Source of the DNA: a virus
Length of the DNA: 38,620 nt
Virus genome (UHGV): UHGV-1367834
Direction: 5' to 3' (one strand)
A model generated the notes under the pieces. It did no database searches, had not been told where the DNA came from, and saw only the letters and a program-made list of their open reading frames with translations. Numbering within the stretch: position 1 is the stretch's first letter; each line of letters begins with the position of its first letter. The position numbers and the translations under genes were made by a program. Below, in pieces: positions 9,674 through 38,620 of this stretch.

Positions 9674-9755
9674 ATTCTAAGCACGTTTCAGATTCAAAGT
9701 AAGGTAATTATACATTAAAAAGCAAATAAAGACACCCTATATAGGGTGTCTTTTG
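9674..9755. repeat. copy A of the roughly 82-nt direct repeat flanking the lysis cassette
   Basis: ATTCTAAGCACGTTTCAGATTCAAAGTAAGGTAATTATACATTAAAAAGCAAATAAAGACACCCTATATAGGGTGTCTTTTG. Confidence 0.7.
9730..9755. terminator. bidirectional intrinsic terminator at the convergence of early (+) and late (-) transcription
   Basis: Perfect 11-bp stem AAAGACACCCT / AGGGTGTCTTT with loop ATAT, flanked by an A-run and a T-run. It sits between the nrdH-like stop and the endolysin stop. Confidence 0.7.
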
Positions 9756-26805: not shown

Positions 26806-26879
26806 ATTAAACCCTCCTATACACCTTATTTTAACACAAAACATATAAAAAAAGAGTGGTGTTTAGCCACTCTTTTAAT

Positions 26880-27234: not shown

Positions 27235-28959
27235 TTAAATACCAAAGCCAAATGTACCTTGCTCTAACATGTTTTCAAAACTTGAATATCCAAAGTCATA
27301 ATACATTGCTTCACTCATTGCATTTATTAAAGCGTCCAATGAATCAATCTTGTTACGATTCATTTTCTTTTCAATTGCTATGTTGTCAGCAAACTCTTTC
27401 ATATACGCATTATATATCGCTGTATTGAGTAGTGGGTTGTTTTGATGTATTATATCACCTTTGTATATTGCGTCCCTTAGATACTTTGTAGGGGCGTTTA
27501 AATACTGTATCCGCTGTGGTACTTCAATTAGATAGCGTTCACCGAAAACTTCCGCTAGTCGCAAGACTGATTGTGAAGCTTGGTGACCATCATAGAAAAT
27601 ACCTTGTAGGTCCAAATCATATGTTTCAACAAAATCAACTATCCAGTCGCACATGTCCGCATGGTCAATCAATCCTGATTCTAACTTACTAATTGAAACG
27701 ATGCCTTCATTCTCATATTGGCGATATGGTATTTTGTCCTCTTGAATTTTCTTTTCAATACCTCCAATTGATGAAATGAAACCATGTGTATTTACGAGTA
27801 ACTTCTCTTCTTCTGCAATTGGTATAATCCAGCTAACCGCTGTTATATCTTTTGTACGTGATAAGTCCATTCCAATAAATACAGGACGTTTTCTAATATC
27901 ATATTCTTTTGTTGCTTTGATTGCGTCCCAACTTTCTTTATCCATAAAGCTATCTTGTGAAGCTTGTACCCAGAAATTCATTTCTTTAGTTAACCAACCA
28001 CTCATGTCACCTTTTGCTTTATACTCTGCCAATGAATTAACCTTATGTTCGTACATGGTTTCATACAATTGTGTATTCTCAAACAGTGGGTTTGATTTTA
28101 TCCAATTGGCTTGGTCATCAACTTCGCTGATACTATCCATTTCCCAACATAAAGCAAGGTATGCGTCTGCTTCAACCTCTTCATTTAATAGCTTAGTTAT
28201 AAATGGATATTCTATGCTGTGCATTGGTCCATTAAGATTTTTAGTTGTTGTACTAATAATCAAAATCAAACCTTGTGGTTGTTGTGATTGTGAACTTTCC
28301 AATACCTCAATTAATGCTGTGCTTTTTGCTTCTCCGTATTCATCTAATACACCGCAAAGTACGTCTAGTCCGTCTAAACTATCTGCGTCACTTGCTAAAG
28401 GTTTAACAGTTGATTCATCTTCTAAATGTTCAATGTCATATTTGTTTACCTTAGTAATTTTACGCACACTATCACTTGAATTTCTCAATGCTTTAAGCTG
28501 TGATTTTAACATACGGAATACAATTCCAGCTTGTTCTTTAGTATTTGCGCCAGCTACAATCTGTCTTGAAGCTTTTGGATATTGTCCTAAGATGAACTCA
28601 TACAATGAAATACCAGCAACCAGAATTGATTTACCGTTTTTACGTGCTAAACTGATATATACTTTTCTGAATCTACGCATTTTATTACTCTTTTTGCGCC
28701 AACCATAGATTAATGCTACAATAAACTTCTGGAACTTAGCTAGTTTATTTGTCTTTTTACTTTTTGGGTCTGGTAACATTTCAATAAATGCGACTGGTTC
28801 ATATGTTTCGCTTGGGTCGTAATAGTATGGATAAGCTGGGTCTTTTGATTTTTCTAGGTCCTTTTCATGTCGTCTAATCGCTTGCTTGATTTTATTACCT
28901 ATTGGTATTTGATTATCTCTTATATAATTAATATAATCAGCTACAAAGTCTTGATTCAT
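27235..28959 (-). CDS. terL: terminase large subunit
   Basis: The N-terminus from the ATG is MNQDFVADYINYIRDNQIPIGNKIKQAIRRH..., typical of TerL. The size is right, and the ATPase region (MDLSRTKDITAVS) and nuclease region are present. RBS AGGAGG. The track ORF starts 11 codons earlier at a TTG. Confidence 0.9.
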   Translation of the reverse strand: MNQDFVADYINYIRDNQIPIGNKIKQAIRRHEKDLEKSKDPAYPYYYDPSETYEPVAFIEMLPDPKSKKTNKLAKFQKFIVALIYGWRKKSNKMRRFRKVYISLARKNGKSILVAGISLYEFILGQYPKASRQIVAGANTKEQAGIVFRMLKSQLKALRNSSDSVRKITKVNKYDIEHLEDESTVKPLASDADSLDGLDVLCGVLDEYGEAKSTALIEVLESSQSQQPQGLILIISTTTKNLNGPMHSIEYPFITKLLNEEVEADAYLALCWEMDSISEVDDQANWIKSNPLFENTQLYETMYEHKVNSLAEYKAKGDMSGWLTKEMNFWVQASQDSFMDKESWDAIKATKEYDIRKRPVFIGMDLSRTKDITAVSWIIPIAEEEKLLVNTHGFISSIGGIEKKIQEDKIPYRQYENEGIVSISKLESGLIDHADMCDWIVDFVETYDLDLQGIFYDGHQASQSVLRLAEVFGERYLIEVPQRIQYLNAPTKYLRDAIYKGDIIHQNNPLLNTAIYNAYMKEFADNIAIEKKMNRNKIDSLDALINAMSEAMYYDFGYSSFENMLEQGTFGFGI

Positions 28960-28980
28960 TTTGTATACCTCCTCATATGT

Positions 28981-28991
28981 ATTATAGCACA
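28981..28991 (-). promoter_or_regulatory. extended -10 promoter (TGTGCTATAAT) for terL
   Basis: The reverse complement of ATTATAGCACA lies immediately after the terminator of the non-coding unit. Confidence 0.55.
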
Positions 28992-29048
28992 AATAAAAAG
29001 ACTTAGGTCATGAGTTTATCCAAAGGGGATAACAAACTTACCTAAGTC
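28991..29048 (-). terminator. intrinsic terminator ending the terS-terL intergenic transcript
   Basis: On the minus strand GACUUAGGU and ACCUAAGUC form a 9-bp stem (with extendable inner pairing) followed by UUUUUAUUUG. Confidence 0.6.
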
Positions 29049-29512: not shown

Positions 29513-29986
29513 TTAACCTTGTGTGCGCATTTTAAGCAATTGACCTAGTGGGTCTTTTGATTCATCTTCAACTTCTTTTGGTGCTACCAATTTTAATCTT
29601 GAATTGATAGTTAAACCTAGGTCATTTGTTGCACTTTTAATTTGCTTACTATAACCCATCATGGCGGTTACTTTGGGGTTCAGTTTTCCGTCCTCTGTCA
29701 CTTCACCCTCAATAGAGACCTCCTCTGCTAATTTACTATATAAGTAAACGTAGTTACAATAAGAAACCAGTGTTTGTGAATCTAACTCACTAAGCGGTAA
29801 TGACCCAGCAAAGTTACCAATTCTTTCCCATTCTGGATATGCACCCCTTAACAACCCCATTGGAAAATATGAAAAGTCTAAAGGTTCGTAATTATATAAC
29901 TTCTCCTCTTCTTTTTTCTTTTGAAATTGTTGTTCTTGTGTTAAATTACCCTGTTGTGCATTTAATAACTTACGTGGTCTACCCAT
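29513..29986 (-). CDS. terS: terminase small subunit (P27-like)
   Basis: 157 aa. The basic N-terminus MGRPRKLL, its size and its position directly upstream of terL resemble P27-family TerS. RBS AAGGAGGTG. Confidence 0.7.
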   Translation of the reverse strand: MGRPRKLLNAQQGNLTQEQQFQKKKEEEKLYNYEPLDFSYFPMGLLRGAYPEWERIGNFAGSLPLSELDSQTLVSYCNYVYLYSKLAEEVSIEGEVTEDGKLNPKVTAMMGYSKQIKSATNDLGLTINSRLKLVAPKEVEDESKDPLGQLLKMRTQG

Positions 29987-30479
29987 TATTTTTCACCTCC
30001 TTATATTTAAAGGTGTAACCTCCACATGTTTTGCGCTTACCTTTTAAAACTTTTACAATTGAACCATCATCAATTTTCAAATCTCTAGCGCAACCTCTAA
30101 TTGAATCATACTCAATTCCATTTGAACAAATTATTTGTTTTGATTTTTGTGTTTTCTGCTGTGTTTCAATTTGTCGTTTGGTTCTTGTTCCATGATTGAT
30201 ATTCTCTTTAGATGTTGACCATTCTAGGTTAGATACAAAATTATTTGTTTTGCATTCATCAATATGGTTTACCTGTGGTTTGTTATCTGGGTTTGGTATA
30301 AATGCTTCTGCAACTAAACGGTGTACCCTCCTAAAGTGTGCTTTATTATCTTTCCACAATGTAACTGTCTTATATCCATCTTTGTCAATATTTTGTTTTA
30401 ACCGTTTGACGTTGTTATATACATTACCATAGTTGTCAACGTAGTATCTACCTTTAAATTCTAATACATCTTTCTTCAT
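29979..30479 (-). CDS. HNH homing endonuclease (NUMOD4/HNH_3 type)
   Basis: Motifs [32 protein letters not shown]...NINHG, C-terminal tail GGYTFKYK. The likely start is the second ATG (MKKDVLEF...) with RBS AGGAGG. A TGTTATACT -10 lies about 25 nt upstream. Confidence 0.8.
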   Translation of the reverse strand: MKKDVLEFKGRYYVDNYGNVYNNVKRLKQNIDKDGYKTVTLWKDNKAHFRRVHRLVAEAFIPNPDNKPQVNHIDECKTNNFVSNLEWSTSKENINHGTRTKRQIETQQKTQKSKQIICSNGIEYDSIRGCARDLKIDDGSIVKVLKGKRKTCGGYTFKYKEVKNNG

Positions 30480-30504
30480 TGTATAACCTCCTATATAATA
30501 TTTA

Positions 30505-30517
30505 ATAGTATAACACA
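30505..30517 (-). promoter_or_regulatory. extended -10 (TGTGTTATACT) for the HNH gene upstream of terS
   Basis: Read on the minus strand just upstream of the HNH RBS. Confidence 0.4.
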
Positions 30518-30535
30518 TTATATAATAGGTGTAAA

Positions 30536-30727
30536 CTATACAACTTCAATAATTTCATAGTGGCGATTCTTACCACCTAGCTTAGTTTTGATGTCTTTAA
30601 AATAGCCAGATTTTTTACCATAAAATTTGTCTGCTTCTGTTTGCGATTTGAAGGCTCTTGTCTGCTGGGTTCGCAAATCTTTTACCATAATAGGTTTTGG
30701 AGCTGGAATAATAATCACACCTTTCAT
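30536..30727 (-). CDS. stand-alone homolog of the C-terminal DNA-binding domain of homing endonucleases (orphan domain, about 63 aa)
   Basis: KPIMVKDLRTQQTRAFKSQTEADKFYGKKSGYFKDIKTKLGGKNRHYEII matches the C-terminal tails of the HNH paralogs here (...GGYIFEKI, ...GGWQFERI). It has its own TGTGCTATAAT promoter at about 30765-30775. Confidence 0.45.
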   Translation of the reverse strand: MKGVIIIPAPKPIMVKDLRTQQTRAFKSQTEADKFYGKKSGYFKDIKTKLGGKNRHYEIIEVV

Positions 30728-30764
30728 TATATATTTTAGTTTAAAAGAAAAAGTCCCTAACAAT

Positions 30765-30775
30765 ATTATAGCACA
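30765..30775 (-). promoter_or_regulatory. extended -10 promoter (TGTGCTATAAT)
   Basis: The reverse complement of ATTATAGCACA. Confidence 0.45.
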
Positions 30776-30984
30776 AAAACTGTTGTTTGAGAAACCAGCT
30801 TTTGTGCTGTTTGTGAGGGAAGAAATTCGTATTAGTGAGATTATGAAACAATGTGTGAAACGTTTGATATTATTAAAAAGAAACCTGTTTTGAATCGTTT
30901 TTTACGAGGGAAAAAGGCTGTTTTGAAACTTCGTTTTTAGAATTTTGTGTGAAGAGAAGGAATCTCCGATTGTAGCCACCAAAA

Positions 30985-31050
30985 TATTGAGGGGGGGCAT
31001 TAAAATTTTCAGCTACCCTCCCCTCGCTTTTGGCGCTATCCCCCTTAAAA
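30985..31050. other. G/C homopolymer-tract hairpin region; candidate cos site and/or bidirectional terminator
   Basis: GAGGGGGGGCATTAAAATTTTCAGCTACCCTCCCCTCGCTTTTGGCGCTATCCCCCTT contains G7, CCCTCCCCTC and C5 tracts, which stand out in an AT-rich genome. It sits between the classic HNH gene and terS. Confidence 0.4.
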
Positions 31051-31446
31051 TTATTTATGGTTAGCCCTACCTGCATTTTTAAAGGAATGAGCGTGGTCCT
31101 CTTTATTGTGACAGGATTGACAAATTGATTCTAAATTATTAATATCTAAACGTTTTTCCCAACCAATTGGTGTACGTATTTCCTCCACATGGTGGACGAT
31201 AGTGGCAAGCGTCTTGGTGTGGTCATTGCGTTCACATACTTCACATAATGGATTGATACTTAACTTGTATTGTCTTAATCTTTTCCATTCACTTGACTGG
31301 TAGAACTCTGCATACCTTTTGTTCTGTGGATTAGTGCGCACATACTTATTGTATTGCGTGGCACTATTACCTTTGTGCTTAGCACAGTACACCTCTGGTT
31401 GCTTTACATATTCTCTACATAAAGCAAGCTTACATTTCTTATACAT
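31051..31446 (-). CDS. HNH endonuclease (classic zinc-finger HNH, terminase-associated type)
   Basis: CEVCERNDHTKTLATIVHHVEEI...NNLESICQSCHNKEDH carries the paired Cys and the H-N-H residues. The start is coupled to the upstream stop (TAATG). Confidence 0.8.
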   Translation of the reverse strand: MYKKCKLALCREYVKQPEVYCAKHKGNSATQYNKYVRTNPQNKRYAEFYQSSEWKRLRQYKLSINPLCEVCERNDHTKTLATIVHHVEEIRTPIGWEKRLDINNLESICQSCHNKEDHAHSFKNAGRANHK

Positions 31447-32320: not shown

Positions 32321-32351
32321 TTGACAACTACTATAGCACATGTTATAGTAG
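32321..32351 (+). promoter_or_regulatory. early promoter P4 (TTGACA, 17-nt spacer, TATAGT) with the inverted repeat CTACTATA-N8-TATAGTAG
   Basis: First + promoter of the right-hand early block. The palindrome spans the spacer and the -10. Confidence 0.6.
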
Positions 32352-32390
32352 GTACATAAGATAACAACAAACAAATTGGAGGAATTAAAA

Positions 32391-32525
32391 ATGACAAAAG
32401 AACAAATCAATGCAGAAGTGAAATTACAAGAAATGTTAGGTAACAAATTAGAAGTGATTCAATTAGGTAATGACATTTACATGTATCTTAATGGTGAATC
32501 ATACAAAACAGCTGAATTAATTTAA
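32391..32525 (+). CDS. small hypothetical protein of about 44 aa, not in the ORF track
   Basis: Strong RBS AATTGGAGGAATTAAAAATG downstream of promoter P4. The reading frame is MTKEQINAEVKLQEMLGNKLEVIQLGNDIYMYLNGESYKTAELI. Confidence 0.5.
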   Translation: MTKEQINAEVKLQEMLGNKLEVIQLGNDIYMYLNGESYKTAELI

Positions 32526-32539
32526 TAAAAATCAGAAAA

Positions 32540-32572
32540 GGGGTTGACAAGTTCAGCCCCAACTGATATACT
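32540..32572 (+). promoter_or_regulatory. early promoter P5 (TTGACA, 17-nt spacer, TATACT) with its -35 embedded in the GGGGTTGA/TCAGCCCC hairpin
   Basis: Duplicated module: 32530-32585 matches 36655-36710. Confidence 0.6.
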
Positions 32573-38105: not shown

Positions 38106-38448
38106 ATTCAGTAGAAAAGTTGTAGATTATTTGGAATCTAAAGGTGCAGTAGTAAACGTCAATACGGCAACCATATATGACCGTGTTGGTCGCTCTGATG
38201 TTGAAGCGTGTTACGAAGGTCACTATATCGCGTTAGAACTCAAAACAGGTAACTACCAACCTGATAAATTACAGATTAGATATTTACAAGATGTTAGGAA
38301 TGCTGGTGGGTATGGACTATTATTAAGAGACAAGTTAGATGATTTGATTGAATTATTAAATTATTTAGATAATTGGGATGAGGTAGACTATATTGAGCCT
38401 GATTTACCAGAAATAAATTATGACGAATTGGAGATTGACTATGATTGA
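38077..38448 (+). CDS. VRR-NUC domain nuclease (PD-(D/E)xK superfamily)
   Basis: GRSDVEACYEGHYIALELKTGNYQPDKLQIRYLQDVRNAGGY fits the VRR-NUC pattern D-x(n)-E-x-K followed by a conserved Q. Confidence 0.65.
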   Translation: MVQYVKQEAKFSRKVVDYLESKGAVVNVNTATIYDRVGRSDVEACYEGHYIALELKTGNYQPDKLQIRYLQDVRNAGGYGLLLRDKLDDLIELLNYLDNWDEVDYIEPDLPEINYDELEIDYD

Positions 38449-38620
38449 AGAATGGAAGGATATTAAAGATTATGAAGGTTTATATAAGGTAAGTAACTTA
38501 GGTAGAGTTAAAAGTAACTATAAAGGACTAGAACGACTATTGAAACCACTTTCTAAGAATAACGGTTATTTATTTGTAATTTTATATAAAGATACCAAAC
38601 CTACAAAATATTATGTCCAC
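38441..38620 (+). CDS. HNH homing endonuclease, 3' truncated by the window edge
   Basis: MIEEWKDIKDYEGLYKVSNLGRVKS has the same N-terminal motif as the other NUMOD4/HNH_3 paralogs. Its start overlaps the VRR-NUC stop codon. Confidence 0.75.
   Translation, partial: MIEEWKDIKDYEGLYKVSNLGRVKSNYKGLERLLKPLSKNNGYLFVILYKDTKPTKYYVH

Follow-up and report, generated by a model that had tools for sequence, protein, structure and literature searches.

The virus genome UHGV-1367834, analysed here as one window of 38,620 nt, raises a question about a short G/C-rich element situated next to the gene of a terminase-associated HNH endonuclease, on the side of the genes for the small and the large terminase subunits (TerS and TerL). 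The window is a circularly closed genome of an Enterococcus siphophage of the genus Efquatrovirus (IME-EF4-like). The interval in question, 30985-31050 (66 nt), carries a G7 run, the tract CCCTCCCCTC and a C5 tract, which an earlier note had proposed as the cohesive end site (cos) of the phage. Are the tracts the place where the genome is cut, a signal next to this place, or simply the end of a transcription unit? The reading we favour is that the 66 bp make the HNH-side flank of cos and not the cohesive end, and that the G7 run is likely a conserved flanking signal; we give this reading a probability of about 0.55.

The cohesive end was located by homology to a phage of the same genus. The termini of IME-EF4 were mapped experimentally to ...GAGATTCGTTTAAGCGAAAG|TCATCACCG|ATTAGTTTC..., with a 9-nt 3' overhang, according to passages of Zhang et al. 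2015 (PMC4445525); in these passages the mapped ends can be also read as ...GCGAAAG|TCATCACCG|ATTAG.... In an alignment of 18 unique Efquatrovirus cos regions, the core ..TC.CCG|ATT aligned gap-free over all of the sequences, and the window reads across the site as ...GTGTGAAGAGAAG|GAATCTCCG|ATTGTAGCC.... The core motif TCNCCGATT was found in the window once, at 30963-30971. By this homology, cos is very probably located at 30960-30968. The predicted overhang GAATCTCCG is not notably GC-rich, and it is separated from the flagged interval by 16 bp and from G7 by 22 bp. The proposal that the G/C tracts are themselves the cohesive end was not upheld by the IME-EF4 homology; the more general claim that the genome ends map here was right for the HNH-side intergenic region but not for the 66 bp.

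Ends of contigs and database records of related phages were observed at the same nicks. The IMG/VR contig 3300045988_019201 (40,462 bp) stops at both predicted nicks (...GAAAAGAAG and ...GGAATCAAT) with the 9 nt absent, as expected of 3' overhangs after end repair. The LY0322 GenBank record (MH193369) stops at the nick, ...GCGAAAG, and then runs into the Illumina adapter AGATCGGAAGAGCACACGTCT (L001, 3009-3029). The record of IME-EFm1, a phage of another genus, and the IME-EFm1-like contigs L189 and L196 stop exactly at ...GAATTAAT. The Ef6.4 record (96% identity to the window here) is opened 3 nt away from the nick, and one further contig end lies 3 nt short of it. Contig IMGVR_UViG_3300045988_009230 (L027 = L012) has a 32-nt terminal fold-back that inverts exactly at ...GAATCTCCG-3'; this fold-back is an assembly or library artefact which marks the 3' end of an overhang of the window's own type. 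PhageTerm reports, as far as the excerpts of them go, give defined cos ends for Abitsa and LOK1, those of Abitsa being HK97-like 3' overhangs. The few ends found inside the G/C tracts are artefacts, because they carry a Nextera adapter or stop in a homopolymer. A scan of viral contigs for ATTGTAGCCACNAAAA produced largely chance matches and no additional contig ends.

As a matter of data quality, the Nextera adapter CTGTCTCTTATACACATCT is present on the ends of two IMG/VR contigs (L172 and L194), and the adapter in the LY0322 record is likewise a contaminant in public data.

The G/C tracts were present as described earlier, and re-indexing of the sequence confirmed their exact coordinates (Table 1). 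They are far from chance. The G7 run is the sole run of at least five G among the 38,620 bases, CCCTCCCCTC is the sole 10-nt pyrimidine stretch in the window with at least eight C, and the C5 at 31040-31044 is one of three runs of at least five C. The GC content of the 66-nt interval, 48% compared to the window mean of 34%, is in the top 1.2% of all 66-nt windows. That the tracts can pair into a GC-rich hairpin was borne out as well: an inverted-repeat search pairs GAGGGGGGG with CCTCCCCTC (pair I21), and the computed fold agrees and widens the pairing to a long imperfect hairpin at 30973-31038 with the outer arms TAGCCACCAAAA and TTTTGGCGCTA. As minus-strand RNA the hairpin has an energy of -30.9 kcal/mol (z = -3.6); as plus-strand DNA it is weaker (z = -1.4). 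Its arms are homopolymeric, with an A bulge or a G-U pair, and they enclose an 18-nt loop and are followed by a short interrupted U-tract. The T-runs that had been said to flank the hairpin in both orientations exist as T stretches, but only of T4 length.

Within the genus, a common layout was seen in 18/18 sequences: a G5-G8 run 22-25 nt from the overhang is followed by a stretch rich in AAAA(T/A)TTTT and then by a C-rich tract. This tract is of the CCCTCCCCTC type in every one of the 18, and the AAAATTTT tract is invariant or nearly so. The EF4-type clade has a full second copy of the C-rich tract, CTCCCTCCCAyTTTTT; the copy has decayed in the window to TATCCCCC (the C5 tract) and is deleted in Ec-ZZ2. 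Folding is possible for all 18 sequences, with the outer stem kept by differing sequences in several subclades: TAGC...GCTA in the window, AGTAAGAA/TTCTTACT in IME196, TGAT/ATCA in Nonaheksakonda, and ACCAAAA/TTTTGGT in BUCT824 and SHEF4. The polarity of the stem is constant, with G on the plus strand and C on the coding strand in every sequence.

In the EF4-type relatives (L017-L024 and L004), the region homologous to 31010-31050 is a tandem duplication, CTCCCTCCCAyTTTTAwwTT, which places GGGAGGGA twice, or four G3 tracts, on the coding strand and gives this clade a potential G-quadruplex. A G-quadruplex in the window phage was considered and rejected, the four G3 tracts being confined to the EF4-type clade.

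Beyond the genus, the loci were anchored on the HNH protein and 15 representatives were stacked ungapped at the nick: seven Efquatrovirus subclades, three IME-EFm1-like Enterococcus faecium phages, one metagenomic phage (L186), three prophages of the Listeria/E. durans group and one E. hailinensis prophage. A loose regular expression for the nick core gave many chance matches, which were removed by eye. Upstream of AAT|CG, the sole conserved block in the stack is the one from -29 to -24, where C is found in 80-100% of the representatives (CCCCCC, sometimes CCCGCC), usually followed by T; the positions from -22 to -4 have no consensus. The C-rich block at -23 to -29 is present in at least five lineages (Efquatrovirus, the IME-EFm1-like phages, the metagenomic phage, and the Listeria and Enterococcus prophages), and the A4T4 element is partly kept (aAAA.tttta). 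Outside the genus, the HNH proteins are only about 52-61% identical to that of the window, and identity between the TerS proteins of the window and IME-EFm1 is 57%. The notion that IME-EFm1 represents a lineage with no G/C tract was dropped, since its relatives carry ACCCCCCTACC at matching spacing. A scan of genome contigs with the HNH alignment added two prophages only.

No G-rich partner or complementary tract to the C-run was found in the IME-EFm1-like phages, L186 or the prophage lineages, and the C-run is unpaired in the minimum free energy folds of the prophage lineage, an IME-EFm1-like phage and L186. Thus, both the sequence of the C-run and its distance from the nick are kept irrespective of a hairpin, which argues for recognition of duplex DNA by the packaging machinery. 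For the same reason the hairpin, which had been put forward as the cos feature, lost this status: the related lineages retain just the G/C run, at equal distance from the nick, and have no complementary tract. We rate slightly above even the chance that G7 (C7 on the coding strand) is a putative sub-site of cos, in the position that cosQ takes in phage lambda.

The cos of lambda (Cue and Feiss 1998; PMC4856287) is organised as cosQ-cosN-cosB, and the window phage appears similar to it in having an upstream sub-site on the end packaged last, a central nicking site and terminase-binding repeats on the terS side. Lambda differs in its 12-nt 5' overhangs, in having no HNH partner and in an unrelated terminase-binding domain. 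Also, the function of lambda cosQ was shown genetically (PMC4856287), whereas for the window phage position and conservation suggest a cosQ-like role.

The events at cos could proceed as follows. By homology, TerS would bind the region of repeats and A-tracts to the left of the nick, and TerL, probably with the adjacent HNH protein, would nick at 30959|30960 and 30968|30969, leaving the 9-nt 3' overhangs. The direction of packaging, as judged from the positions of terS and cosB, would be toward terS and terL, and packaging would end once the motor arrives, from the HNH side, at the following cos. At this moment the G:C run would be about 2.5 helical turns ahead of the cut, and then in or at the motor, where it may help to arrest or position the complex, much as cosQ does; G7, situated on the last-packaged genome end, is most likely recognised in duplex form. 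In the HNH mRNA, with less weight, the C-run might pair with GAGGGGAGGG to give a terminator. Since, in Efquatrovirus, the CCCTCCCCTC and C5 tracts are both complementary to the run, a stem-loop with a U-rich stretch behind it can form in the HNH transcript. Transcription of the HNH operon would then stop ahead of cos, and the operon would be kept apart from the packaging and structural genes, whose own promoter lies about 170 nt past cos. We put a little below even the chance that the stem-loop adds this terminator layer in Efquatrovirus. The element would then have two layers, the C-run as a cos element common to all lineages and, in the lytic Enterococcus phages, its recruitment as the 3' arm of a stem.

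Several observations weigh against this account. In the passages available for the HK97-type phages, no sequence upstream of the nick is tied experimentally to packaging, and the TerS site of HK97 is on the opposite side. The nick in the prophages was set by motif similarity alone, and therefore the fixed spacing there is not independent; a BLAST search with the cos region of the prophage lineage returned only two unannotated Listeria phage records, and for this reason the nick of this lineage has no independent confirmation. The lineages also share ancestry, so the conservation could be partly inherited. The termini of the window phage itself are those predicted from its relatives, and the support from its own overhang type, GAATCTCCG, is indirect (the Ef6.4 junction 3 nt off, one fold-back artefact ending in ...CCG and the one end 3 nt short). 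As for the terminator layer, a simple terminator scan does not call the element, and the EF4-type hairpins as minus-strand RNA are not above shuffled sequences (z about 0 to -0.8). RNAalifold run on the 18-sequence alignment gave practically no consensus structure (4 pairs, -0.06 kcal/mol); here the alignment was defeated by homopolymer slippage and by indels between the arms.

A wider version of the same idea would make a homopolymeric G:C block 2-3 helical turns upstream of the nick a general, previously undescribed sub-site of the HK97-type (HNH-assisted, 3'-overhang) cos and a counterpart of cosQ. The translocating terminase/HNH complex would read this block to stop and to make the terminal cut, and a G9 run of HK97 may echo the block. 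We offer this generalisation tentatively and think it rather unlikely. The G9 is located in HK97 (AF069529, L236) at 39682-39690, between gp74 and the right cohesive end, 42 nt from the end of the record and, if the record end is taken as the end of the 10-nt overhang, 32 nt from the inner nick. In this genome of 50% GC it is one of two runs of at least six G, and there are no runs of at least six C. No sequence similarity between the G-runs of HK97 and the window was established, and no role for the HK97 G9 was found in the searched passages of the HK97 literature. The overhang of HK97 has 10 nt, and its run has G on the coding strand, compared to C here, and is about 10 bp (approximately one helical turn) further from the nick; since it is on the opposite strand and further out, we treat it as a lead and not as a sign of homology.

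Could the element instead do no more than terminate the HNH operon, as an intrinsic terminator that may be bidirectional, with no part in packaging, and be close to cos only because a transcription unit ends there? We consider this unlikely, though it has points in its favour. On both strands U/T-rich stretches come after the GC-rich stem, and the EF4-type clade has good tails (CCCCCCCTCATTTTTTT on the minus, CTCCCTCCCATTTTATTTT on the plus strand). In the clade of the window itself the folding is strong (z = -3.6), and a conserved promoter stands just downstream of cos. In IME-EFm1 a different hairpin with a T-run can form before cos, but only if a part of the HNH coding sequence is included. 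The U-tract 3' of the stem is UCAAUAUUUUGG in the window, where it is interrupted, and UCAUUUUUUU in the EF4-type phages; the prophage lineages have none. On the other hand, the C-run stands at equal distance from the nick in lineages that have neither the complementary tract nor the T-run. The polarity of the stem never flips, whereas stems of ordinary terminators flip freely. With its 18-nt loop and homopolymer arms the element differs from the other terminators of this genome, which have perfect stems of 10-13 bp and tetraloops (e.g., 9728-9753 and 26850-26876). Besides the missed call by the simple scan and the EF4-type hairpins that do no better than shuffles, the TransTermHP run of the Sigurd paper, in the portion of that paper available, reports only a terminator at the point where the gene arms converge. 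The bidirectional terminator, which had been the fallback of the earlier note, is thus a live partial explanation of the stem-loop in the genus, but it leaves the conservation of the run across lineages unexplained.

The shape of the hairpin gives the same mixed picture in comparison with Rho-independent terminators in general. It is like them in the GC-rich stem and U-rich tail at the end of a gene, and the A/T tracts on both sides are as in the bidirectional type; it is unlike them in its homopolymer arms with an A bulge or G-U pair, large loop, short interrupted U-tract and absence from the scan output.

That the tracts have no specific function, and are a slippage-prone homopolymer with inherited flanking repeats kept by descent, is in our view improbable. 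The length of the G-run does vary from G5 to G8 among relatives, and the second C-tract is in decay in the window's clade and has been lost from Ec-ZZ2. Against this, the block keeps a fixed spacing across lineages in which identity of the HNH and TerS proteins is down to about 52-61% and the spacers cannot be aligned; elsewhere in these AT-rich genomes, moreover, runs of this kind are extremely rare. An RNA-level regulator, in which the C-run sequesters GGGAGG-like tracts of the coding strand that resemble Shine-Dalgarno sequences and so controls translation or stability of the 3' end of the HNH mRNA, is very improbable. The coding strand does carry GGGGGA and GAGGGGAGGG, which resemble Shine-Dalgarno sequences and pair with C7; still, no conserved open reading frame (ORF) or start codon was found downstream of the tracts, the partner tracts are absent in the other lineages, and there is no match to an Rfam family (a search of 30500-31200 at a permissive threshold gave only a chance snoRNA match, E = 0.9). 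The G/C hairpin as the cleavage site itself, with cohesive ends made from the tracts, has a nearly negligible chance, since the IME-EF4 overhang aligns 22 bp from G7 and the contig and record ends of the relatives are at the nicks and not in the tracts, even if the order HNH - element - terS/terL is as in HK97 and the tracts are the most unusual sequence of the region.

Returning to the favoured reading, a flanking signal next to a separate nicking site, we compared the site with its closest mapped relative. IME-EF4 belongs to the same genus, has the order HNH - cos - terS, the alignable ..TC.CCG|ATT core with the predicted 9-nt 3' overhang at the same position, and the same G-run 22 nt from the overhang. 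The overhangs themselves differ, TCATCACCG in IME-EF4 and GAATCTCCG in the window being identical at 6 of 9 positions, and so do the spacer and the outer stem; IME-EF4 has two full C-rich repeats, the window one and the decayed C5. The keyword-retrieved passages of the IME-EF4 paper (PMC4445525) contain no mention of the flanking G/C element. Likewise, a description of a flanking G/C run or of its conservation across genera was not found in the keyword-searched passages of cos-related papers. The cos of Efquatrovirus is already known; the window phage adds a variant overhang, and the flanking motif is a modest new lead.

There are practical consequences. The physical ends of the genome can be predicted with single-base precision, at 30959|30960 and 30968|30969, with no laboratory experiment. 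The rule of AAT|CG with a C-run at -23 to -29 also places cos in those relatives for which PhageTerm failed, for example Sigurd. Finally, the DNA signals on the last-packaged side that stop HK97-type terminases are barely known, and a rare G:C run at fixed spacing across genera is a concrete candidate that can be mutated.

On the other side of the nick, the conserved non-coding block contains two kinds of repeats placed about 90 bp apart, AGAAACCWG (30790-30798 and 30879-30887) and GAGGGAANNA (30815-30824 and 30906-30915). Both repeat units are conserved in Efquatrovirus and IME-EFm1, and they are candidate cosB-like binding repeats for TerS. An A-tract block at +14 to +40 (30920-30946, within the conserved block) may be the counterpart, by analogy, of the TerS-binding side of HK97: according to passages of Chechik et al. 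2024 (PMC11331095), the HK97 TerS binds +15 to +29 on the terS side of the cut, and this side downstream of the cut is A-tract-rich there as it is here. The hexamers of the promoter-like site found by the promoter scan (Table 1) are conserved across the genus alignment. A counterpart was found at equal distance in an IME-EFm1-like phage (L193, 2148-2176); none was found in the prophage lineage, which also has no complementary tract and no T-run. This co-occurrence of promoter and hairpin is a small-sample correlation that fits the two-layer reading.

Table 1. Coordinates of the features at cos and of the neighbouring genes in the window
Feature	Coordinates	Strand	Remarks
GAGGGGGGG (coding strand CCCCCCCTC)	30989..30997	+	G7 at 30991-30997; conserved motif flanking cos at -23 to -29 relative to the nick; forms the hairpin's 5' arm on the plus strand
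CCCTCCCCTC	31016..31025	+	Pairing partner of the G-run; specific to Efquatrovirus
C5 tract	31040..31044	+	What is left of a decayed second C-rich repeat; 6 nt separate it from the HNH stop codon
AAAATTTT, A4T4 element	31002..31009	.	In the hairpin loop, just past the G-run
Extended stem-loop	30973..31038	-	Outer arms 30973-30984 / 31028-31038; tail UCAAUAUUUUGG; possible intrinsic terminator of the HNH transcript
Predicted cosN, 9-nt 3' overhang GAATCTCCG	30960..30968	+	Predicted nicks: plus strand 30968|30969, minus strand 30959|30960; by homology to the IME-EF4 cos
ATT triplet (coding strand AAT) directly past the nick	30969..30971	+	AAT|CG in 14/15 nick-anchored representatives; GAT in one
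Conserved non-coding block, cosB position	30780..30959	-	Kept in 114 phage records and in IME-EFm1, a phage of another genus
Promoter-like site TTCTCA-17 nt-TGcTATAAT	30765..30793	-	About 170 nt past cos; faces the 75-codon ORF, terS and terL; from promoter scan
Terminase-associated HNH endonuclease	31051..31446	-	PF01844, E = 4.4e-9; final gene ahead of cos; stop codon 31051-31053
TerS, P27 family	29513..29986	-	PF05119, E = 1e-11; 57% identical to IME-EFm1 TerS
TerL, HK97-type	27235..28992	-	PF03354 and PF20441 matches
NUMOD4/HNH_3 homing endonuclease	29979..30518	-	Inserted between cos and terS
75-codon ORF	30536..30763	-	Between the conserved non-coding DNA and the homing endonuclease

More than 100 records of Enterococcus phages match this region, with identity of about 77-96%. 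All genes around the G/C element are on the minus strand, in the order HNH (31446..31051), G/C element, about 290 nt of conserved non-coding DNA, the 75-codon ORF (30763..30536), the homing endonuclease, TerS, TerL, portal, S78 protease and HK97-fold capsid. Contrary to the earlier note, the element is therefore not directly between HNH and terS. An HNH gene was present at the equivalent position in every annotated relative inspected, the protein of the window being 60% identical to the HNH of IME-EF4 and 54% to that of IME-EFm1. The head genes were identified by Pfam as portal (PF04860), S78 prohead protease (PF04586) and HK97-fold capsid (PF05065). We do not regard a 67-codon ORF at 30873-31076 as a gene, since it spans cos, lacks conservation and matches nothing in Pfam.

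The gene set is an HK97-type module for HNH-assisted cos packaging and head formation. Similarly to HK97 (TerS gp1, TerL gp2, HNH gp74; Kala et al. 2014; PMC11331095), the HNH gene is the last before cos, the predicted overhangs are 3', and the P27/HK97-type terminase is combined with portal, S78 protease and capsid. The HK97 gp74 protein stimulates cleavage of cos by terminase, as cited in passages of PMC11331095. The module being of the HK97 type, the argument from gene order made at the outset was sound, and the Pfam matches for HNH, P27 TerS, HK97-type TerL, portal, S78 protease and capsid bear out a cos phage with an HK97-like module.

The edges of the window were also informative. The final 180 nt (38441-38620) and the first 324 nt fuse in frame, ...KYYVH|RLVAKAF..., into one intact 167-aa homing endonuclease of the NUMOD4/HNH_3/I-HmuI type, 45% identical to the one at 29979-30518. 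Therefore, the window is a circularly closed assembly that was opened inside a gene. The suggestion of a circular permutation across the junction was correct in this respect, and what had been taken for truncated HNH paralogs at both edges are two halves of a single gene.

In relatives, the slot between cos and terS is either empty (Nonaheksakonda, SHEF4, AUEF3) or occupied by another small endonuclease (IME_EF3, ZAT1), a pattern suggestive of a mobile-nuclease hotspot. A strong perfect bidirectional terminator, AAAGACACCCTATATAGGGTGTCTTT, is located at 9728-9753 where two gene arms converge, and it represents the canonical type for this genome. At 32321-32572 on the plus strand, where the minus-strand arm that includes HNH and the plus-strand replication arm diverge, we observed a pair of near-consensus promoters (TTGACA-17 nt-TATAGT and TTGACA-17 nt-TATACT), each with TG.

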